Positions 4,021-58,909 of a DNA stretch of 64,000 bases are shown here, one piece after another. The translations under genes and the position numbers were made by a program. Origin of the DNA: a virus; IMG/VR virus record IMGVR_UViG_3300017917_001839, positions 58,295-122,294 of that record; one strand, 5' to 3'. A model generated the notes under the pieces. The model did not search any database. It had not been told where the DNA came from and saw only the letters and a list, made by a program, of their open reading frames with translations. Within the stretch, counting starts at the first letter, position 1. Each line of letters starts with the position of its first letter.

Positions 4021-4677
4021 TTAAGTACGCACATATTTATCAAACGCTTTTGTGGTGTAGATGCTACATTGGCTGTAGTCTGTGTCAGTTTTAATTTCAA
4101 TTTCTTCAGACGTAATCAAGTTTGCTAAACTAACATTAACGGTCTTTAGCATAAAATGCGGATCGTTCTTAGCAGTAATATAAAACTTTAAGATCTTCTT
4201 TCCCTTAGCAACCATGTTACTGGGTTCAACGTCCGAATACTTCTTTATCAAATTTTTATGGGCTGTTACCGTAAACTCTGTTGCCGTTAATTTACATTTG
4301 ATATCATAGCTGCTTGTTTTTGCAGGTTCTACCAAAGAAAGGAATTCCTCTTCAGCAGCAACATATTGGCTTTCAACAGATCTACTTTCAATGCTGAACA
4401 AATTATCTACTAGCGGATCTTGCTTAACATAGAATAAGTTATGATTCTTACCTTTGAGTATCTCTACTTGATCCTGTGTAAACTCATGCTTGTTAGTCCA
4501 GTGTGATAATACTTCTACATCTTCATCTGTGGTAACGCATAGAATAGTACCTGTTTCATCAAAGTAAACAGTTGCAGGTTTATTTGAGTTAGCTTTAATC
4601 AATGCACCGGCTGTGCCGCCTGCTGCTTCTTTAGCTGCAATAAATCGCAGACGTCTTAGCTCTGCTTCAGATTCCAT
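4021..4677 (-). CDS. Hypothetical protein
   Basis: 218-aa ORF, co-oriented with and overlapping the upstream gene. Confidence 0.7.
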   Translation of the reverse strand: MESEAELRRLRFIAAKEAAGGTAGALIKANSNKPATVYFDETGTILCVTTDEDVEVLSHWTNKHEFTQDQVEILKGKNHNLFYVKQDPLVDNLFSIESRSVESQYVAAEEEFLSLVEPAKTSSYDIKCKLTATEFTVTAHKNLIKKYSDVEPSNMVAKGKKILKFYITAKNDPHFMLKTVNVSLANLITSEEIEIKTDTDYSQCSIYTTKAFDKYVRT

Positions 4678-5530
4678 AATCCTGCTCCATTTGTTTTATC
4701 ATATCAGCAGTTATCCAATCTTTTTCTACGTAATGAAATGGCAGTGTTTGCTGAAAGTTACCAATTTTAAAATCTGTATAACTGTTATAGTATGTAGGTA
4801 GAGTGTCTGTCCAACACTCACTAATTTTGCTACTAGGCACATTCTGTACATGGCTCTTCATGTGTACAAACGTTGGTACTGCATCAATGTTTTCTCGGGT
4901 ACATTCATGTTCAATACCCAGTAGCTGCATAGCTAGTGCAAATGCAACGTCACCGCTGAGCCAATCAGGTTTGCCTTCAGGCATATACTTGTAGAAGAAA
5001 CGCTGCCAGTGCTGGAATACAATTTCAGTCATAGCAAACAATTCACTTGCTAGTTCACTTTTCTTAAAATAAAAGAAAGCGGTGTACACATTGGGTAGAT
5101 TGTTTTTTACAAAGTATTCACGATAGTAGTTACTGCTAACAGTTTCTCCGCGGAAGGTACGCACCTTAGTAGTAGCCCATACATCACGCTGTGCTAGTAT
5201 ATCCCACCAGTGACTTACATCTGTGGGGAAGATCATATCTGTGTCTAATATAACTGTTTCGTCATACGGAGTCATATACAAGTATTTCCACTTGTTGTTG
5301 ATCTTCCACTCTGCATCTGCTGCATCATCCTGCCAAGGAATGTCAACTATGTAATCAAACACTTGCTTGTGCTTACTAGTAATTAGCTTTTTAGTTTCAG
5401 CGTCAACACAGACTGTTAGATTGTTAACAGTGCTTTGAGTAAGTTTTAAGTTGAGCGCAAGGGCATAAGCCTGCTGGAGGTAATCCACAGACTTTGTGTT
5501 TTGTGCTATAACTATATAACCTCTACTCAT
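4667..5530 (-). CDS. Glycosyltransferase, GT8-like/nucleotide-diphospho-sugar transferase
   Basis: RGYIVIA...Y..QAYALALNLK, TPYDETVILDTDMIF (DxD), HMK. Confidence 0.65.
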   Translation of the reverse strand: MSRGYIVIAQNTKSVDYLQQAYALALNLKLTQSTVNNLTVCVDAETKKLITSKHKQVFDYIVDIPWQDDAADAEWKINNKWKYLYMTPYDETVILDTDMIFPTDVSHWWDILAQRDVWATTKVRTFRGETVSSNYYREYFVKNNLPNVYTAFFYFKKSELASELFAMTEIVFQHWQRFFYKYMPEGKPDWLSGDVAFALAMQLLGIEHECTRENIDAVPTFVHMKSHVQNVPSSKISECWTDTLPTYYNSYTDFKIGNFQQTLPFHYVEKDWITADMIKQMEQDYGI

Positions 5531-6147
5531 CTAACCCCGCTAGCTAATACAATCTTACAAATGTGTTCTAGTCGTTCGATGTGTTCCATAGCACGCCACG
5601 GACTAGTATCAATGCTAACAACACCGTGACCTTTAATGCCAACAATATCATAAGCAACATTACCATGGTCATCTAGTTGTAGGTTCTCATGACACTTGGT
5701 TGCTAGTTCTTCGCTGATAGGTGGAACATCTGGAACGTTGGGTGCTACACGAGTATAACGTCCTAATTCCGGAAAGTCTTTTACTAAATCTGCGAGCTCA
5801 ATGCCGGCGTGCATAGCTGCCACACAATAAGTAGGATGCAAGTGCATCACAACACGCACATCGTTACTGTGCTGACCCATTGCTCTTTGTAAACCAAAAT
5901 GCAACGGAATCTCTCCGCTAGGCTTTAATTTAGCACTAATGTCAGAATAGAATTCTTCTTGCCATAGTAAGCCATGAATACTAATCTTTTTAAATTGATC
6001 AGGCTGTAGTGTTTGCTTACGTACACCGCTAGGCGTAATGTAAAAATGATTACGGTCATGATGGCGAATACTTACGTTGCCGTCGCGACTAGTAATCCAA
6101 TTGCGTCTATATGCCTCTACCAGTGTATCACAAATCGTTTCTAACAT
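5527..6147 (-). CDS. Class II aldolase/adducin family protein
   Basis: GNVSIR, ITPSG, PSGEIPLH, HLHPTY (Zn ligands), GHGVV. Confidence 0.85.
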   Translation of the reverse strand: MLETICDTLVEAYRRNWITSRDGNVSIRHHDRNHFYITPSGVRKQTLQPDQFKKISIHGLLWQEEFYSDISAKLKPSGEIPLHFGLQRAMGQHSNDVRVVMHLHPTYCVAAMHAGIELADLVKDFPELGRYTRVAPNVPDVPPISEELATKCHENLQLDDHGNVAYDIVGIKGHGVVSIDTSPWRAMEHIERLEHICKIVLASGVR

Positions 6148-44222: not shown

Positions 44223-45107
44223 ATGACAATAACAACAGCTAAAAAGCAAAACTATCTCAATAACAAAGACATTCTAAAGGAAATCCATAAAAGCAAGATT
44301 ACCTTTTGTTATGTTGAGGATGATCGTTACGATATGTACGATCTTATTGTTGATAGTGTAAAAGACATCAATAAAAAAGCTCTAACACAAGCCAAGGAAA
44401 ATAAGGCTGCACGGATTCAGAGCGAGGGTTATGCGGAAGCAATGTTAGGACATGACTCTAAAGATTATCGTAACAAGCCCAAACAAAAAGATTTCGCAGT
44501 CGATCCGGATTCAATTGGCGACGACGAAGTTGTATTTCGTGTTATGACTTACGAGCATATTCCCGAAGAGGAAGGTCGTAAGAAGAATCCTAAAAACGAA
44601 GCTGAAGAAAAGAGTCGTGTAAACTTTCCCCCATTCAAGCACTATGCTTATCAAAATGGTGAGCTTAAGGAAGTTGTTCGCAGTCACTGGCGCGGTAGTT
44701 TAAGTAATGGCGAGTTTTGTGTTGATCACGGACGTATCACTAATACCTTAGGTACTATGTTCTTAAAGCTAGTTGAACGTTACAGCCATCGTGCTAACTG
44801 GCGTGGTTATACTTACATTGACGAAATGCGTGGTCAAGCATTGGTACAGCTAAGTCAAGTTGGACTACAGTTTAACGAAGCAAAGTCTGATAACCCATTT
44901 GCGTATTATACTGCCGCTGTTAACAATAGCTTTACACGAGTACTTAACTTAGAAAAGCGCAATCAAACCATTCGCGATGATATTTTGATTGAACAAGGGC
45001 ACATGCCTAGCTACAGTAGACAGCTAGCGCACGAAGCAGAAATCCGTCAACTCAGAGAAACTGCGGAAGCAGATAGACCTTCCCACGAGGAATACGACGA
45101 CCTATGA
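44223..45107 (+). CDS. gp55: Late-transcription sigma factor, T4 gp55-like
   Basis: NYLNNKD...NWRGYTYIDEM...FNEAKSDNPFAYYT..V.NSF.R.L..EK; synteny with gp47/gp46. Confidence 0.85.
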   Translation: MTITTAKKQNYLNNKDILKEIHKSKITFCYVEDDRYDMYDLIVDSVKDINKKALTQAKENKAARIQSEGYAEAMLGHDSKDYRNKPKQKDFAVDPDSIGDDEVVFRVMTYEHIPEEEGRKKNPKNEAEEKSRVNFPPFKHYAYQNGELKEVVRSHWRGSLSNGEFCVDHGRITNTLGTMFLKLVERYSHRANWRGYTYIDEMRGQALVQLSQVGLQFNEAKSDNPFAYYTAAVNNSFTRVLNLEKRNQTIRDDILIEQGHMPSYSRQLAHEAEIRQLRETAEADRPSHEEYDDL

Positions 45108-46120
45108 GCCAGCTGTTTAAAACAGCGGCTTGCTTTACAGACATTCACTACGGTTTAAAGCAAAACAGCCGCGTCCATCTAGATGACTGTCATCGATTTG
45201 TTGATTGGTTTATTGCAGAAGCAAAAGCTCGCGGAGCAGAAACCTGTATCTTCTTAGGTGACTGGAGTCACCATCGTGCCAGCGTAAACGTTGCTACAAT
45301 GAACGCTAGTATTAAGGATCTTAAAAAGTTAAACGACAACTTTGAAAAGGTTTACTTTATCACCGGTAACCACGACTTGTACTACAAGGACAAGCGTGAA
45401 CTAAACAGCGTTGAGTATGCTCGCGATCTACCAAACTTTGTTATGGTTGATGAAAAGTTCGTGCAAGATGATGTTGCTATTCTCCCATGGCTGGTAGCAG
45501 ATGAGTGGAAGCAAGTACAAAAGATGCGAGTCAAGTATTTGTTTGGTCACTTAGAGCTGCCTTACTTCAAAATGAATGCTATGGTAGAGATGCCAGATCA
45601 CGGCGGTCTCAAAGCAGAGCATTTGAGCGGTCCAGAATATGTGTTCAGCGGACACTTCCACAAGCGTCAGTACAAGAATAACATTCACTATATTGGTAAT
45701 GCTTTCCCACATAATTATGCAGACGTAGACGACAACGAACGTGGTGCAATGTTCCTTACTTGGGGTGAAGAACCAGTATATGTTAACTGGCCAGACTGTC
45801 CTAAGTTTAAGGTCTTTAGTCTCAGCGAATTAATTGATAACCATGAGAATTTACTTGACGAATATACCTATGCTCGTGTAAAATTAAACATTAATATTAG
45901 CTATGAAGAAGCTAACTTTATACGAGAAAAATTTTCTGAGCTGTATAAAGTTCGCGAACTGCAATTGATGCCTGTTAAGGACGAAGAGCAGGAATTCGAA
46001 GGCGGCGAGATTAAGTTTGAAAGCGTAGATCAAATTGTTCTCAGTCAGCTGGATACAATTGAATCTAACACCGTTGATAAGCAAGTATTAATTGATATCT
46101 ATAATAAACTTGAGGTCTAA
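45104..46120 (+). CDS. gp47: Recombination endonuclease subunit (Mre11/SbcD-like)
   Basis: DIHYG, LGDW, GNHD, GHLE and SGHFH phosphoesterase motifs. Confidence 0.92.
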   Translation: MSQLFKTAACFTDIHYGLKQNSRVHLDDCHRFVDWFIAEAKARGAETCIFLGDWSHHRASVNVATMNASIKDLKKLNDNFEKVYFITGNHDLYYKDKRELNSVEYARDLPNFVMVDEKFVQDDVAILPWLVADEWKQVQKMRVKYLFGHLELPYFKMNAMVEMPDHGGLKAEHLSGPEYVFSGHFHKRQYKNNIHYIGNAFPHNYADVDDNERGAMFLTWGEEPVYVNWPDCPKFKVFSLSELIDNHENLLDEYTYARVKLNINISYEEANFIREKFSELYKVRELQLMPVKDEEQEFEGGEIKFESVDQIVLSQLDTIESNTVDKQVLIDIYNKLEV

Positions 46121-47889
46121 TGCTAAAGATTAAAAATGTAAGTGCCAAGAACTTCATGAGTATTGGCGCTCAGACGCAGGCTGTTAATTTTGATAATTGC
46201 AACCTTACACTAGTGTTAGGGCATAACCTTGACCTAGGCGGGGATGGCAGTCGTAACGGCACAGGCAAGACAACAATTGTAAATGCACTCAGCTACGGAC
46301 TATACGGCGAAGCATTAACTAACATTAAGAAAGATAACCTAATCAACAAGACAAATGGCAAGACCATGATTGTCACAGTTGATTTTGAAGTTAATGGCAA
46401 GGCATATCGTATTGAAAGAGGCCGTAAACCAAACATCTTGCGCTTCTATGTTGATGGTGTTGAAACCAACGAAGACGATGATGCACAAGGCGACAGCAGA
46501 GAAACACAAAAAGAAATTGAACGCATTGTTGGCTTCCCGCATGAAATGTTTAAGCACATTGTTGCGCTAAACACTTATACCGAGCCTTTCCTCAGCATGA
46601 AGTCTAATGACCAACGTGCAATGATTGAGCAGTTGTTAGGTATCACCGAGCTAAGTCAAAAAGCAGATATTCTCAAAGAGCTGCTTAAGCAAACCAAGGA
46701 TGCTATTCGTGATGAAGAAATACGCATCAATGTAGTTAAGACCAGCAACGAGCGTATTGAAAAGAACATTGCCGAAATTGAAAGTCGCAGTAAGGCTTGG
46801 GAAAAGACCAAGTCAGATAAACTTGCTGACATGCAAAATGTTATCAGCGCACTCAGCGAGATTGACATTGAAAAAGAGATCGAAGGTCACAAGACTAATC
46901 AAGTTAACAAAGAACAGCGCGATGCAAAGACTGTTTTAGAAAACGAAAGAGATCGAACTGAAACGTCGCTGAACCGCAGTAACAAAAAGTGCGATGAGCT
47001 AAAGAGCAACATTAAGAATGCACTAGAAGGTGTATGTCCTGCGTGTAAGCAAAGCACAGCACATTTAGATACGCACGAAGAATATACCGCAGAGCTTAAC
47101 GTTAAACTTGGTGAAGAAACAAAGTATAACAGCGAAGTAGCAGAACGACTGAAAGAAGTTAAAGATGCTATTGCTGCACTAGGTATTGTTGCAGAAGATG
47201 TTACTACTTTCTACGATAGTATTGAAGGTGCGTTGGAACACAAACATAATCTAGAAACGCTAACTGCACAGTACAACGAAAAAACTGTTGAAGTTAATCC
47301 GTATACTGATCAAATTGAGAGTTTAAAAAGCACAGGGTTACAAGAGATTAGCTTTGAAACAATTAACGAGCTTACGTATCTTAAGGACCACCAAGAGTTC
47401 TTGCTCAAGCTACTAACAAGTAAAGATAGTTTTATTCGTAAAAAGATTATTGATCAAAACATTGCTTACCTAAACCATCGTCTTGCATACTATCTTGACA
47501 AGATTGGTTTACCGCATGACGTTAAATTTAACAGTGACCTCACAGTTGAGATTACTGAGTATGGTCGCGATCTAGACTTTGATAACTTGAGTCGCGGTGA
47601 ACGTAACAGACTTATTCTAAGTTTGTCATGGGCTTTCCGTGACATTTACGAAAGTTTGAACCAACCCATGAACTTGATGTGCATTGACGAACTTATTGAC
47701 AGTGGCATGGATAGTATGGGTGTTGAAAACAGTCTTGCTATCCTTAAGCGGATGAACAGAGAAAATGGTAAAAACATTTTCCTAATCAGTCACAAAGAAG
47801 AACTAGTTGGTCGTGTTAACAATGTACTAACAGTTATTAAGGAAGGTGGCTTTACCAGCTACAACACTGATACCGAATATGTAGAGTAA
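46120..47889 (+). CDS. gp46: Recombination ATPase subunit (Rad50/SbcC-like)
   Basis: Walker A NGTGKTT, CPAC zinc hook, LSRGE signature, IDE Walker B, ISH. Confidence 0.92.
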   Translation: MLKIKNVSAKNFMSIGAQTQAVNFDNCNLTLVLGHNLDLGGDGSRNGTGKTTIVNALSYGLYGEALTNIKKDNLINKTNGKTMIVTVDFEVNGKAYRIERGRKPNILRFYVDGVETNEDDDAQGDSRETQKEIERIVGFPHEMFKHIVALNTYTEPFLSMKSNDQRAMIEQLLGITELSQKADILKELLKQTKDAIRDEEIRINVVKTSNERIEKNIAEIESRSKAWEKTKSDKLADMQNVISALSEIDIEKEIEGHKTNQVNKEQRDAKTVLENERDRTETSLNRSNKKCDELKSNIKNALEGVCPACKQSTAHLDTHEEYTAELNVKLGEETKYNSEVAERLKEVKDAIAALGIVAEDVTTFYDSIEGALEHKHNLETLTAQYNEKTVEVNPYTDQIESLKSTGLQEISFETINELTYLKDHQEFLLKLLTSKDSFIRKKIIDQNIAYLNHRLAYYLDKIGLPHDVKFNSDLTVEITEYGRDLDFDNLSRGERNRLILSLSWAFRDIYESLNQPMNLMCIDELIDSGMDSMGVENSLAILKRMNRENGKNIFLISHKEELVGRVNNVLTVIKEGGFTSYNTDTEYVE

Positions 47890-47890
47890 A

Positions 47891-48439
47891 ATGATTTTAG
47901 TATTAACTACTCCACGTACCGGAAGTACAAGTTTCTGTGAACAGCTTGCTAGAACGCATTCATATGAAAATCTAGATGAGTATTTTGATGAGGAATCTAC
48001 GGTAGATGATCAACTTACTAAGCTAGAGTATATTAAGCAAAACAAAAATACAGTAATAAAGTGTTTTCCGTGGCATTTGAACCATTCATTGTTTTTAGAA
48101 AAGAATGTAATAACCTTAGCTGAAAAAATTTATATATTGATACGTAGTAATTTTGCTGATCAATGTAAAAGCTACTATCTTGCTAAGTCTACTGACATTT
48201 GGAGTGGTGCACCACAGCAACACCAAACTGTATATGTTGATGATGAACTTTTTAACTTTTGTGTCAAACGTCTTATTAGTGGGTACAACCAACTAGAGAA
48301 ATATTATAGGATTGTGGATTCAGAGCTAGTAGATTATAATGAGCTCTCATTTGAGATCGGAAGAAAATATATTAGACCTGTTACTTTTATCAACGAACCT
48401 AAATATGTTGACTTTGATGTAAAAGCATTGTTTACCTAA
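47891..48439 (+). CDS. Sulfotransferase-like P-loop protein
   Basis: ILVLTTPRTGST (5'-PSB-like loop), E.F, LIR...Q..SY. Confidence 0.55.
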   Translation: MILVLTTPRTGSTSFCEQLARTHSYENLDEYFDEESTVDDQLTKLEYIKQNKNTVIKCFPWHLNHSLFLEKNVITLAEKIYILIRSNFADQCKSYYLAKSTDIWSGAPQQHQTVYVDDELFNFCVKRLISGYNQLEKYYRIVDSELVDYNELSFEIGRKYIRPVTFINEPKYVDFDVKALFT

Positions 48440-48480
48440 ATGTCCATGGTATATTTCCAAACTCCAAGTAAATATGAGTT

Positions 48481-48903
48481 ATGGAATGGACATATAAAGG
48501 TCAAACAGTAAACGAATTACCGGAAGGTACTGAAGCGTTTGTTTACTTGATTACTAACTTAACCAACAACAGAAAGTATGTGGGTAAAAAGTTAGCCAAG
48601 TTTAAAAAGACTCGCCCTCCACTAAAGGGCAAGAAAAACAAGCGTAGAAGTACAGTTGAAAGTGATTGGCGAGAGTACTGGGGCAGTAACGATCATCTTA
48701 AAGAAGATGTTGTACGTTTGGGCTCCGGTAACTTTACTAGGGAGATACTTTATTTCTGTCCTAGCAGAGGTGTAGCCAGTTATTTAGAAGCTAGAGAACA
48801 ATTTGATCGCAAAGTACTCGAAACGGACGAATATTACAACGGTATTATTAACGTTAGAGTAGGCGGTTCACAAATATTAAAAGAAGCACTCAAGGCATTA
48901 TAA
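48481..48903 (+). CDS. GIY-YIG family nuclease
   Basis: FVYLITNLTNNRKYVGKK, YWGS, FTREIL, E, YYN. Confidence 0.82.
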   Translation: MEWTYKGQTVNELPEGTEAFVYLITNLTNNRKYVGKKLAKFKKTRPPLKGKKNKRRSTVESDWREYWGSNDHLKEDVVRLGSGNFTREILYFCPSRGVASYLEAREQFDRKVLETDEYYNGIINVRVGGSQILKEALKAL

Positions 48904-49420
48904 CTACAATACAACATGGCATCCAGGCTTACACGGCTTACCAAAAAACTCTCCCAGGCATCAAATCCTTAAATTAACTAAGGCACAAACATAGGCACTG
49001 CACCGCCCCACCGAGGACTATATCGGTTTCCTTGAGGCTCCGTTTCGCTACGGCGTCAGATTCTGGAATGCAGTCGGCAAGATGCAAACAACGTTATGGC
49101 ATTGAAAGAATGTAGGCTCTGAGAAAAAGCAACCTACAAGCGGGTATAATCAAACTCCACTAGATTATACTGGCTTCCGAGCGAATACAAGTGACGGTAG
49201 TGTATGGGGAGAGAAGGCGCTCTGCTTCCTAATAAGCACCCGGGTTGGAGATGGTGAAGCTCATCGTGATGACGCTTTTCTTTTTGTTCATCCTGCAAAG
49301 GGTGAACTATGGCTCCACTTTCGTGATAACTTCTTAATAGTACTAAAATATCTTACAAGTGAATGAGTGAAGTGAAACGAAACGAATGAACGTAGTAAGA
49401 TAAGGCCTTAAAGGCCTAAC
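48904..49420 (+). ncRNA. Putative structured non-coding element (ncRNA or replication origin)
   Basis: No ORF of 60 aa or more; multiple stems, several using G-U pairs on the + strand. Confidence 0.45.
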
Positions 49421-49476
49421 AGTATGCACAATGAATAGCTGTGAGCATTTGTATTAGTGGTTCAAATCAACTAGCC

Positions 49477-49505
49477 AAAAAAAAATCCCAGCCTAAACTG
49501 GGATT
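49477..49505 (-). terminator. Rho-independent terminator
   Basis: AAUCCCAG-N6-CUGGGAUU followed by a U tract, right after stop 49508. Confidence 0.85.
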
Positions 49506-49507
49506 CT

Positions 49508-49741
49508 TTATAGATACTCCGAGGGTTGTTTGCCTGACTTAACTTGATTGTAGTTGTTTAATATTTTAACAGCTAACTCTCTTTCACTAAAACTCATGTT
49601 CCAGAGATCGTTCCATCTAAATGCACCCTCACTGTAGATTACTATTTCGGTAATCTGCTTTTGTAATTCCCCAGCTTCCTTTCTCAGCTTATTGATATAG
49701 TTTATAATATCTTGGGGTTCAGCTGATGCTAGGAAGCCGTG
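49508..49741 (-). CDS. -1 frameshift extension of the baseplate hub chaperone (gp51-like)
   Basis: Open -1 frame HGFLASAEPQDIINYINKLRKEAGELQKQITEIVIYSEGAFRWNDLWNMSFSERELAVKILNNYNQVKSGKQPSEYL*, with no upstream ATG, beginning at slippery T TTT TTC. Confidence 0.7.
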   Translation of the reverse strand, partial: HGFLASAEPQDIINYINKLRKEAGELQKQITEIVIYSEGAFRWNDLWNMSFSERELAVKILNNYNQVKSGKQPSEYL

Positions 49742-50580
49742 AAAAAATTTACTGGGTCAAAGCCAACCTCCTGTTCGAATGCTCCGTGGTCTTCACATTC
49801 TAACTGGACTCGCTTGTTGACGCCGATCTTGTTGATGCCTGCGATCTTTTCTTCGATGGTCTTGCCAATAACGGTTTCGCAGTTCTCTAGGAACTCACGA
49901 ATCATTTTAGAGTCATCAACTACAAAAGTGTTACCTTCTTCGTCAACACCTTTGATATTAGCAACACTGTCAACAATAAGATCAAAGTTAAGTGCTGCAA
50001 TTCTCAAGAAACTATCGTTGAATGCCTTAAGCTGTTCCATCTCATCCTTAATGTCAGCTAGACCTTGTAAGCTACGTGTGCTCTTGAAATTAGCAATACC
50101 TGCCTTTACGGTACTTTCGTAGCTGAACGGCTTAAGTTCAATTACCAGACCGTTATGTGTTTCAAATGTATAAGTTGACTCTAGCACCTGCATGGTTTCA
50201 AGTGCTGCTTCAACACTAGCAATGCCCGAACACTCTTTGCCGCAGGTTGGGCAGTTACCTTTTACTTCAATGTCGTCGCCGTAGCTAGCACCTTGAATAG
50301 CAACCAGTAGCGCATCAATGTCGTTGCTGATTAGTCTACGTGGTTTCTTCACAGATGGAACACAACTGGAAATTAGTTGAGCAACAGCTTCACCATTCAG
50401 CAACGCATCCGGGTTCTTCATGATCAGCTCATCTTTTGCAGTCATGGGATAAACAGGCAACTCATTGCTGGATGGCATATCTACCACGTCTGGGTTATAG
50501 AAACGGCCACCACTGGGAATCTTGGTGTACAGCTTTGGCGCCCTAAAATACCCACTAAGTGGATTAGTTTGATTTGCCAT
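49729..50580 (-). CDS. gp26: Baseplate hub assembly chaperone, T4 gp26-like
   Basis: NPLSGYFR.P...PSGG.FY...MTAKDE...DIDALLVAI..ASYG...CPTC...FDPVNFF. Confidence 0.72.
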   Translation of the reverse strand: MANQTNPLSGYFRAPKLYTKIPSGGRFYNPDVVDMPSSNELPVYPMTAKDELIMKNPDALLNGEAVAQLISSCVPSVKKPRRLISNDIDALLVAIQGASYGDDIEVKGNCPTCGKECSGIASVEAALETMQVLESTYTFETHNGLVIELKPFSYESTVKAGIANFKSTRSLQGLADIKDEMEQLKAFNDSFLRIAALNFDLIVDSVANIKGVDEEGNTFVVDDSKMIREFLENCETVIGKTIEEKIAGINKIGVNKRVQLECEDHGAFEQEVGFDPVNFFTAS

Positions 50581-58285: not shown

Positions 58286-58909
58286 ATGGCACGTAAACTT
58301 TACGAATTTATGAACGCAGACATGGGCGGTTTCAAGCTCATGGAAAGCGAAGATGGCAAGGACTTGTTTATGCATGGCCTTTTCATTCAAGGTGATGTAA
58401 AGAATCAAAACGGTCGTGTTTATCCACGCTCCGAAATTGAACGTGCTGTAGAAAGTGTTAGAGGCAGATTAAGCAAAGGCGAAACTGTGTTGGGCGAATT
58501 AGACCACCCAGAAGAGCTTCAAATTAATCTGGACCGTGTGAGCCATATCATCACTGATATGCACTGTGAAGGCTCAAACGGTATTGGTAAACTTAAAATC
58601 ATAGACACACCTATGGGTAATATTGCTCGCAGCTTACTAAAAGCTGGGGCAAAACTGGGCGTTAGTAGTCGTGGAAGTGGTAACGTTAATGAATCCGGTA
58701 AGGTTTCAGATTTCGATATCGTAACTGTTGACATTGTGGCCCAGCCCAGTGCGCCAGACGCATATCCAAAAACTATCTATGAGAGTTTGTTTAACATGCG
58801 CGGCGGCGAAGCTGTTTACAGAACAGCCGCCGCGATGACACACGATAAAAGTGCAGAAAAACATTTGGTGAAGGCCATCACAGGCTTGATCCGAGAACTA
58901 AGACTTTAA
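58286..58909 (+). CDS. gp21: Prohead protease, T4 gp21-like
   Basis: NQNGRVYP, LGELDHP, RVSH, LGVSSRGSG, TVDIVAQPSAPDAY. Confidence 0.93.
   Translation: MARKLYEFMNADMGGFKLMESEDGKDLFMHGLFIQGDVKNQNGRVYPRSEIERAVESVRGRLSKGETVLGELDHPEELQINLDRVSHIITDMHCEGSNGIGKLKIIDTPMGNIARSLLKAGAKLGVSSRGSGNVNESGKVSDFDIVTVDIVAQPSAPDAYPKTIYESLFNMRGGEAVYRTAAAMTHDKSAEKHLVKAITGLIRELRL

Follow-up and report, generated by a model that had tools for sequence, protein, structure and literature searches.

What lies in the largest gap between genes in a region that carries T4-type genes, and does it belong to the small nuclease gene that precedes it? The window analysed here is a stretch of 64,000 nucleotides (nt), positions 58,295 to 122,294 of the 122-kilobase (kb) IMG/VR virus record IMGVR_UViG_3300017917_001839. 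Between a GIY-YIG nuclease gene (seg140, 48481-48903, + strand) and a convergent gp26-type baseplate gene (49729-50580, - strand, identified from the open reading frame list and a profile search), the 825 nt at 48904-49728 are free of open reading frames (ORFs) of 60 or more amino acids in all six frames. A sequence-only reading of the window had singled this out as the largest ORF-free gap, which it is (the runner-up measures 145 nt), and had proposed that it holds an undescribed + strand non-coding RNA, either partnered with the nuclease or acting as an RNA-primed replication origin. The gap does contain such an RNA, about 420-435 nt long (from approximately 48982 or 48997 to 49417, + strand), pseudoknotted and with at least 13 helices. 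It represents an undescribed family found on hundreds of uncultured aquatic phage contigs, mostly of T4-like myophages, and in a few bacterial mobile elements. The best overall explanation, and in our judgement a probable if far from settled one, is that the gap contains the gene of a new trans-acting RNA family of phages and mobile elements.

Distribution in phages and bacteria

A search of the viral contigs with the 140-amino-acid nuclease gave 589 confirmed stretches, of which the best 80 loci were kept, and their downstream regions were compared by BLASTN and then by iterated nhmmer. A homologous element directly behind the nuclease gene and on the same strand was present in 40 of 81 targets at the first nhmmer round, and in 72 of 81 after five further rounds. 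In all eight loci without an nhmmer match the contig ends 440 nt or less past the nuclease gene. Two motif scans of the viral contigs contributed at least 239 new loci, 205 of them with the element, which brings the total to at least 273 fetched loci and 221 distinct sequences. All locus counts given here cover fetched loci, and totals are lower bounds. The element is non-coding and contains no conserved ORF, as the longest frames of the 40 first matches differ in strand, frame and place. It ranges from about 370 to 560 nt in length and falls into at least three subgroups, which have the 3' half and the overall plan in common and diverge in the middle. It has been kept across phages whose gp46/gp47 identity is only about 54%.

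Bacterial copies are few and sit in islands of Alphaproteobacteria that resemble mobile elements. A scan of 185,579 species genomes with the P5 motif returned 10 stretches, four of which were confirmed by nhmmer and by R2, a covariance model of the P5-P6-P7 core: a contig of a Legionellales metagenome-assembled genome, a Marinicaulis metagenome-assembled genome, Alsobacter soli SH9 and Endobacterium cereale RZME27. The Legionellales contig has a seg140 gene upstream of the RNA and is probably a phage contig. The Alsobacter copy (L335:4509-4950) lies just past a large serine recombinase gene, and the Endobacterium copy (L326:4944-5260) is flanked by an HNH-like ORF and a resolvase gene. By eye, all four copies retain P5, P6, P7 and P10 and have re-formed the pseudoknot with 7-9 new pairs. 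Among the 151 genomes sampled from the class, the RNA occurred in the centre genome alone; it is therefore sporadic in bacteria, as mobile DNA is. BLASTN against 50,697 cultured-phage records found nothing for the window region, for two of its relatives (L017 and L092) or for the Endobacterium copy, and a BLASTN comparison of the latter with plasmids was likewise negative. Searches of the open literature, excluding supplementary files, which may list candidate RNAs, turned up no description of this RNA.

Covariation and strand

The homologous regions downstream of the nuclease genes are conserved among relatives and covary strongly. From 26 sequences RNAalifold derived 40 pairs, of which 25 show compensatory changes; from raw MAFFT alignments it recovered just part of the fold. 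A covariation scan across all column pairs exposed a pseudoknot between the loop of P6 and a segment about 90 nt downstream. The model comprises 16 helices and 87 pairs including the pseudoknot, and its pairs were counted in 43 diverse sequences aligned with MAFFT, blind to structure. On that alignment 77.1% of cells were paired compared to 62.5% in shuffled controls, and 71 of the 87 pairs showed changes on both sides. The covariation score was 0.403, against 0.181 when shuffled and 0.09-0.135 when the partners were slid by 1-3 columns; none of 500 shuffles reached the observed values. R2 gave 83 matches in 100 sources, and the R2-guided alignment (73 distinct rows), which is fitted to the model and hence biased toward it, raised pairing to 87.9% (65.9% shuffled) and the score to 0.547 (0.175 shuffled). 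R2 misses a subgroup with a different P5 loop, having no match in L018, L048 and L075.

The RNA lies on the + strand: read from the opposite strand, its many G-U pairs would become A-C mismatches. With 20 shuffles for each strand, the folding energy has a z of -2.29 on the + strand, which is mildly unusual, and of +0.31 on the - strand, where it is no better than that of shuffled sequence. Because folding energy alone is only mildly unusual, the case for structure rests on covariation. Conservation, covariation, the frequent G-U pairs and the absence of an Rfam match thus uphold the earlier suggestion of an undescribed + strand RNA.

The same evidence speaks to the suggestion that the region is a replication origin or encodes an R-loop primer RNA. 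The region is non-coding and sits at the junction of convergently transcribed modules, and its short repeated boxes, described below, could be read as iterons. However, beyond non-coding status nothing favours an origin. Compensatory changes have preserved pairs of an RNA, among them G-U pairs whose complements could not pair, the - strand does not fold unusually well, and the element also occurs in non-T4 phages and in bacterial islands. A GC-skew check found that the change in skew at this point coincides with the switch in coding strand. We consider an origin scarcely credible.

Architecture of the RNA

All positions in this section are on the + strand. The 5' domain is a three-way junction (48997-49074), in which 21 of 22 pairs change on both sides. 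It consists of P1 (48997-49002/49069-49074), the P2 hairpin (49010-49014/49023-49027) and P3 (49028-49031/49065-49068), with an inner hairpin P3a (49037-49042/49051-49057). Hairpin P4 follows (GATGC/GCATT, 49081-49103; both-side changes at four of six pairs). The P5 hairpin (49111-49138) is 100% paired with three of four pairs covarying, and 91.5% paired on the model-guided alignment; its 16-nt loop, CUCUGAGAAAAAGCAA (49117-49132), is near-invariant in the two subgroups that have it. In the P6 hairpin (49143-49171), nine of ten pairs covary on the MAFFT alignment and all ten on the model-guided one.

The loop of P6 bears the 5' strand of the pseudoknot, CTCCA (49155-49159), whose partner is TGGAG (49246-49250). 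The pseudoknot is of the H-type, all six of its pairs change on both sides, and distant members retain it with unrelated letters. Between its strands are a joining region and P7. The joining region (49175-49204) begins with an invariant UUCCG (49175-49179), marked by invariant CCG columns, and includes a purine-rich segment, GUGACGGUAGUGUA, which by eye we take to resemble a loop-E strand. The P7 hairpin (UGGGG/CUUCC, 49205-49229) has an inner stem of 2-3 base pairs and is 93.3% paired. Its third pair (columns 233/252, approximately 49207/49227 in the window) is G-U in 55 of 73 distinct sequences. This arrangement of GGGG.../...CUCC with a G-U third pair is laid out like G3-U70 in alanine acceptor stems and in transfer-messenger RNA (tmRNA); no CCA end follows P7.

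Beyond the pseudoknot, hairpin P9 (GAAGC/GCTTT, 49256-49278, by eye) carries the first of two boxes, box A, in its loop. The P10 hairpin (49286-49307) has both-side changes at seven of nine pairs and ends in a GNRA-type loop, GCAA, which is GAGA, GCAA or GUAA in relatives; one hairpin of relatives has tandem G-A flanks. The UAUGGCUCC motif and the second box, A', occupy 49308-49329, with invariant TATGG/CTC columns. The 3' domain (49350-49417) starts with a long hairpin (ATCTTAC/GTAAGAT, 49350-49356/49395-49401) that has a purine-rich loop and is, by eye, restricted to the subgroup of the window, and finishes with the terminal hairpin AGGCCTTAAAGGCCT (49403-49417), in which seven of eight pairs change on both sides.

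Of the nine stems listed in the sequence-only reading, eight agree with helices of the model. ACTGCA/TGCAGT corresponds to P1, ACCGA/TCGGT to P2, CCGT/ACGG to P3a, TGTAGG/CCTACA to P5, GGTATAAT/ATTATACT to P6, GTTCATCC/GGGTGAAC to P10 and the two copies of AGGCCT to P13, all of which are kept in relatives. An eighth, TATCTTAC/GTAAGATA, is a stem of the window's subgroup only, with both-side changes seen by eye and not counted. The pairing of GAAGGCG at 49214 with CGCTTTT at 49273 is not supported: GAAGGCG falls within hairpin P7, and GCTTT (49274-49278) pairs with GAAGC (49256-49260). The pseudoknot had been overlooked.

Two matching boxes within the RNA

Two short boxes distinguish the 3' half of the RNA. 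In the window, box A (CAUC-GUGAUGA, 49262-49272) lies in the loop of P9, and box A' (UUUC-GUGAUAA, 49319-49329) repeats its letters. The automatic search took as A' the letters after UCU that follow a UAUGR motif past P10, and as A an occurrence of CUC with the same five letters no more than 140 nt before; box A of the window, being preceded by AUC and not CUC, went unscored. A matching pair was found in 219 of 274 loci, with 27 variants of the 7-mer and a chance expectation of about 0.2%. With positions 0-1 left free, these two letters were still identical in all 160 distinct sequences, which between them use nine dinucleotides. Identity holds in 97% at position 6 and falls to 40% at position 7. 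The consensus is NNAURAW, so that the boxes differ between lineages and match within each RNA.

Ordinary helix covariation does not yield two identical sites. Because the sites are kept identical rather than complementary, it is suggested that one partner reads both. When one member of each of the 27 variants was searched for 6-nt segments complementary to its boxes, with G-U pairs permitted, no such site recurred at a constant position. In one subgroup UUGUGU occurs 44-51 nt upstream; this string pairs with the boxes through wobbles only and is promiscuous, and the window's own box is no more frequent across its 122-kb record than expected by chance. Several established readings of such short sequences were tried by hand, namely T-box-like codons of transfer RNA (tRNA), start codons of mini-ORFs, take-off and landing sites for ribosome hopping, and complements of entire anticodon loops. 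All of them suit part of the variants and break down on the rest, AGAUAAU, ACGAAAU and AACAGAA being examples; position 37 would often be a pyrimidine.

Our working model, tentative and in our view less likely than not, is that the RNA serves as a rigid scaffold displaying two copies of a box to one cognate partner that is bound twice. The scaffold would hold two single-stranded, lineage-specific boxes, CUC-x7 in the loop of P9 and UCU-x7 after P10; candidates for the partner are a protein dimer and a nucleic acid that base-pairs. Such an RNA might function as a sequestering or assembly RNA during infection.

Comparison with known RNA classes

Rfam 15 contains no model that recognises this RNA. 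The whole 64-kb window is without a match at the gathering score, the region 47500-50500 gave chance-level matches only when searched up to an expectation value (E) of 10 (E 0.57 or higher), and eight relatives and the four bacterial loci gave nothing up to E 1. As the sequence-only reading had noted, tRNA and tmRNA hallmarks are lacking; ARAGORN was negative in both the window and the whole 122-kb record. Methylophilales phage Melnitz served as a positive control. In it the same tools detected the tmRNA (106.7 and 113.4 bits; tag ANDNYVPVDYALAA) and the glutamine riboswitch (52.8 bits), reproducing the published two-piece tmRNA with the riboswitch behind it (L083:1985-2451).

Individual classes were rejected on several grounds. 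One-piece and permuted tmRNA (RF00023, RF01849, RF04321) gave no match, and there is no T-loop, CCA end or tag reading frame. The group I intron model (RF00028) had no match up to E 10; a complete ORF lies upstream, a terminator-like hairpin and a convergent gene lie downstream, there are no flanking exons, and by eye the topology of the pseudoknot is unlike that of P3/P7. RNase P RNA was negative in Rfam, as was HEARO/OMEGA, the neighbours here being GIY-YIG, PDDEXK or no nuclease. For GOLLD, ROOL and other large RNAs of Rfam, the 64-kb window yielded nothing at the gathering score, and the region nothing up to E 10. The glutamine riboswitch models (RF01739, RF01704) had no match in the window, the likeness being limited to short strings. 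We also compared the boxes with box C/D kink-turns: the window has GUGAUGA in box A and GUGAUAA in box A', and CUGA strings occur near box A' in one subgroup, while many lineages have UAAU or AAAU instead. The small nucleolar RNA models of Rfam had no meaningful match in the window.

Could the RNA nonetheless be a strongly diverged two-piece tmRNA, RNase P RNA, group I intron core or glutamine riboswitch? Its size is near that of the 453-nt tmRNA of the nearest cultured relative, and some strings resemble, by eye, the E-loop of the glutamine riboswitch. A GGGG/CUCC-type helix with a G-U third pair is reminiscent of an alanine acceptor stem, and GIY-YIG genes are often found in group I introns. 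However, tools that easily find the tmRNA and riboswitch of Melnitz find nothing here, and we regard such a divergent member as hardly plausible.

The two-piece tmRNA of marine myophages of the Melnitz type, with its glutamine riboswitch, is nevertheless a useful comparison: its gene encodes a stable RNA, measures about 450 nt and belongs to a related myophage. The RNA of the window differs from it in being unrecognised by Rfam and ARAGORN, in lacking a tRNA-like domain, CCA end and tag frame, and in its position in the genome. Permuted tmRNA was found in none of five long RNA-carrying records, all five of which are incomplete. In Melnitz a gene of the PDDEXK superfamily lies about 500 nt upstream of the tmRNA, and its sequence is unlike the PDDEXK_15 proteins described below. 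Early expression of the Melnitz tmRNA gene has been reported (PMC9004378).

GOLLD and ROOL offer a likeness of another kind. They too are RNAs of several hundred bases with many helices, pseudoknots and conserved loops, found in phages and mobile elements and encoded by a single gene with no obligatory protein neighbour. The RNA of the window is smaller (370-560 nt across the family), is not usually beside tRNA genes and lacks an Rfam match. Its self-identical boxes have no known counterpart. Oligomer formation by GOLLD, ROOL and OLE has been reported (PMC12286853).

HEARO and the OMEGA RNAs of IscB and TnpB are also structured RNAs of a few hundred bases beside a small nuclease gene in mobile DNA, and they also combine a conserved scaffold with short lineage-specific segments. 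Yet the neighbours here are GIY-YIG or PD-(D/E)xK proteins rather than RuvC/HNH IscB or TnpB, RNA occurs without a neighbouring nuclease and the protein without RNA, there are no transposon ends, and two identical 7-mers lie inside the fold in place of one terminal guide.

The adjacent nuclease

The sequence-only reading had described the protein as a minimal 140-amino-acid nuclease, and this description holds: seg140 is a SegE-type GIY-YIG protein that consists of the catalytic domain alone, with no DNA-binding module. Residues 3-123 match the full 123-position profile PF19835 (SegE_GIY-YIG; E 9e-33), and the general GIY-YIG profile PF01541 fails its cut-off (E 0.012). Y22, Y33-x-G35, R56, E103 and N120 are invariant in nine relatives of 34-84% identity; we take these to be the counterparts of the catalytic residues of I-TevI, and judging from the sequence the protein is probably an active enzyme. 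The family is matched by 512 cultured-phage records, the nearest being that of Melnitz (72.6%).

The amino-acid identity of seg140 is 75-84% where that of gp46/gp47 is 53-55%, and in the same pairs identity at four-fold sites is 0.32-0.54 for seg140 and 0.36-0.50 for gp46. Because synonymous sites are equally saturated and the protein is more conserved, seg140 appears to be as old as its neighbours and under stronger selection. We accordingly reject a mobile Seg-type homing endonuclease, given the lack of NUMOD or helix-turn-helix domains, the saturated synonymous sites and the high protein conservation. The sequence comparisons instead indicate a vertically inherited, strongly constrained catalytic domain, whose affiliation is more likely with the recombination genes gp46/gp47 than with the RNA. 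We infer that a structure-specific recombination or repair nuclease would suit both the position of seg140 and its replacement by a PD-(D/E)xK protein.

These properties also bear on the idea of a homing hot spot, in which endonuclease genes have repeatedly settled beside a conserved RNA gene that is their cleavage target in genomes without them. Three or four nuclease families occupy the one slot, one of them with a NUMOD3 tail, and the slot is variable, with other genes in L079 and L189. There is a precedent in T4, where the Seg-type GIY-YIG gene segB sits in a tRNA cluster, so that in a T4-like genome a gene of this type directly adjoins conserved genes for stable RNAs; SegB is reported to be a site-specific homing enzyme (PMC2330249). 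In contrast to SegB, seg140 lacks a DNA-binding half and evolves as a constrained core gene. Its old vertical descent under selection is not that of a recently spread selfish gene, and it is present in most loci rather than sporadically, so that a hot spot seems quite improbable.

Expression

No + strand promoter precedes either the nuclease gene or the RNA in the window in a consensus scan, which covered sigma-70-type sites only, and the TAAATA box at 48469 that had been proposed to drive both was not confirmed. Two relatives have what appears to be a promoter of the RNA's own: in L092 and L133, a predicted sigma-70 promoter (TTGACA/TTGACT-17-TATAAT) is positioned for a start at P1, and in L092 a terminator lies immediately upstream of it. 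In a few other phages the RNA thus seems, from these predictions, to form a self-contained unit of terminator, sigma-70 promoter and RNA.

Near-identical sequence is present in RNA libraries, which does not by itself prove transcription, ends or level. Twenty-four indexed metatranscriptome runs each contained 4-19% of the sampled words, and contigs of four RNA-recorded runs from four studies were compared. Contigs 88-99% alike covered 48982-49251 (X7), 48982-49254 (X8), 49195-49400 (X6) and 49011-49134 (X1). Those of X1 also take in the nuclease gene and, of the gp26-like gene, the 3' end; those of X6, X7 and X8 cover the RNA with little or nothing of the flanking genes, X8 adding a 42-nt piece of the nuclease gene end. 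Homology starts at 48982. Two contigs end at 49251 and 49254, just past the 3' strand of the pseudoknot, and one of them runs into adapter; these stops could be a processing site or an accident of assembly.

The structure might instead be a cis-acting 3' untranslated region without any separate role, which stabilises, terminates or regulates a messenger RNA (mRNA), either that of the nuclease or that of the gp47-gp46 operon. This would agree with the lack of a promoter between the nuclease stop codon and P1 in the window. In L006 and L007, moreover, P1 starts about 10 nt or less past the stop codon, and the transcription unit is closed by the terminal hairpin and a terminator-like hairpin. Against this, more than 400 nt, 13 helices, a pseudoknot, and GNRA and invariant 16-nt loops far exceed what a stabiliser needs, the RNA elsewhere has its own predicted promoter and unrelated neighbours, and it is retained where the upstream gene has been exchanged. 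A purely cis-acting role is very unlikely.

Relation of the RNA to the nuclease gene

The order gp47-gp46-(variable)-small nuclease-RNA-...-gp26(-) is retained in most loci, and the sequence-only reading had taken the adjacency of nuclease and RNA as a partnership. The RNA is separable from the nuclease gene, and free-standing units, an insertion, exchange of the slot and cultured relatives without the RNA all speak against that claim. No nuclease gene was found among the scanned flanking ORFs of L092 and L133; the neighbours in L092 are a tropism-determinant-like protein, phosphorylases and unknowns. Nor was one found among the scanned ORFs beside L103, which represents a different kind of phage context, and L131, or in the ORF downstream of L098. 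In L079 two ORFs of 343 and 142 amino acids (4297-5756) are inserted between the nuclease gene and the RNA, and in L189 other genes occupy the slot. Neither a GIY-YIG nor a PDDEXK_15 nuclease is upstream on the same strand in 13 loci, including L090, where a SegE gene is on the other strand. Conversely, phages S-SRM01, phiN3, S-SSM4 and Melnitz have no room for the RNA after their seg140 gene, and R2 found no RNA anywhere in these four whole records. The simplest account of the position next to the GIY-YIG gene is that gene order has been conserved where the recombination module ends.

Exchange of the slot is best seen where a PDDEXK_15 protein (PF24608) of about 170 amino acids lies between gp46 and the RNA (L094:2614-3123, L166:11831-12349 and nine more), a non-homologous replacement in a fixed slot. 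A full-length SegE+NUMOD3 relative of 357 amino acids is present in L159.

Several points weigh against a trans-acting RNA with a life of its own. In 170 of the 194 distinct loci that are informative, a GIY-YIG gene immediately precedes the RNA on the same strand, 11 further distinct loci hold PDDEXK_15 in its place, and in the Endobacterium island (L326) an HNH-like ORF lies about 850 nt upstream; this pattern can also be read as functional coupling. The lack of a promoter between the nuclease gene and the RNA in the window means that the RNA may be the 3' part of the nuclease mRNA. The RNA-library evidence consists of assembled contigs, which may contain DNA and neither rank genes nor fix ends. 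Helix P11 is weakly backed, being 38% paired on the MAFFT alignment. As for the boxes, no internal complement occurs at a fixed place, and the binding of one partner twice is only inferred. The Endobacterium copy is an exception: by eye, its P9 loop UCUGAAAUGG complements the box-A' region CCAUUCCAG (8/9) rather than repeating it, which the simple two-site picture does not account for.

The coupling suggested by the first of these points would make the RNA a guide, aiming scaffold, regulator or maturation substrate of the adjacent nuclease, with the boxes specifying a nucleic-acid target. Besides the adjacency, the points in its favour are that the slot is also filled by an unrelated fold or by SegE+NUMOD3, that L067 keeps the order of nuclease gene and RNA despite a rearranged context, and that seg140 is strongly constrained though without a DNA-binding domain; the boxes are lineage-specific, like guide segments. 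However, the RNA stands alone behind its own predicted promoter in L092 and L133, the pair is split by two unrelated genes in L079, and the seg140 family is widespread in cultured cyanophages, rhizobiophages and Melnitz with no adjacent RNA. The boxes are merely 7 nt long and identical copies, not one long guide, and directly after gp46/gp47 a recombination nuclease is to be expected. We therefore judge a nuclease-RNA system rather unlikely, and prefer a trans-acting RNA that is independent of its neighbour.

A bolder form of the trans-acting RNA would be the specificity subunit of a new RNA-dependent machine for processing nucleic acids. Its two boxes would read two copies of one short sequence, for example partner sites for cleavage or strand exchange, which have to match, and the chemistry would come from interchangeable nucleases (GIY-YIG, PD-(D/E)xK, HNH) or, in bacteria, from serine recombinases. 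Equally bold would be a new ribozyme or self-assembling RNA particle. Proposals of this kind are, in our opinion, distinctly unlikely.

Genomic context

In the window, gp47/Mre11-like and gp46/Rad50-like ORFs (45104-47889, + strand) are followed by an ORF of 182 amino acids (47891-48439, + strand), located between gp46 and the nuclease gene. Its N-terminus has a weak match to Stf0 sulphotransferase (PF09037, E 3.2e-5), and only some relatives have such an ORF (L005, 55%). A + strand ORF of 1158 amino acids comes after the gp26-type gene. A variable spacer with repeated GGCA/GGCT motifs (48904-48981, + strand), unconserved among relatives, separates seg140 from the RNA; about six such repeats, roughly 10-40 nt apart, can be counted over 48889-48990. 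An (A/T)AGGCA motif lies 12-15 nt ahead of P1 in most T4-like relatives and also closes the nuclease ORF, and from its placement may be a processing or start signal. The extended pattern (A/T)AGGCA...ATAG was ruled out as a genome-wide promoter-like motif, its remaining matches falling within genes.

Between the RNA and the convergent gp26-like gene is a hairpin read from the sequence as terminator-like on both strands (49477-49509), with A9, TCCCAG/CTGGGA and a T-rich tail. A weak alignment to the Rfam rimP model shows this hairpin and its U-run on the - strand; the consensus scan of the window does not list it.

Transfer RNA genes were seen in two of 13 other loci scanned: in L098 (5475-5651), a relative that is not T4-like, genes for tRNA-Ile(UAU) and tRNA-Met precede the RNA by 1.3 kb, and in L103 the distance is about 5.7 kb. 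CheckV rated RNA-carrying records of 120-250 kb (G000, G001-G005) as just 33-72% complete, and on that basis the phages that carry the RNA may have very large genomes of roughly 350 kb.

Significance

To our knowledge, few large natural RNAs combine many covarying helices with a pseudoknot, and nearly every such class that has been studied is a ribozyme, the core of a ribonucleoprotein, a guide RNA or a self-assembling particle. The present RNA is widespread (at least 273 loci), crosses phage types and reaches bacterial islands. Our analysis also corrects a tempting reading of the locus, as the adjacent nuclease is probably a core enzyme of the recombination type and not RNA-guided. With homologues in two cultured alphaproteobacteria, the RNA is open to bench study now, and identifying the partner of its boxes would show what use a whole clade of abundant freshwater and marine phages makes of it.

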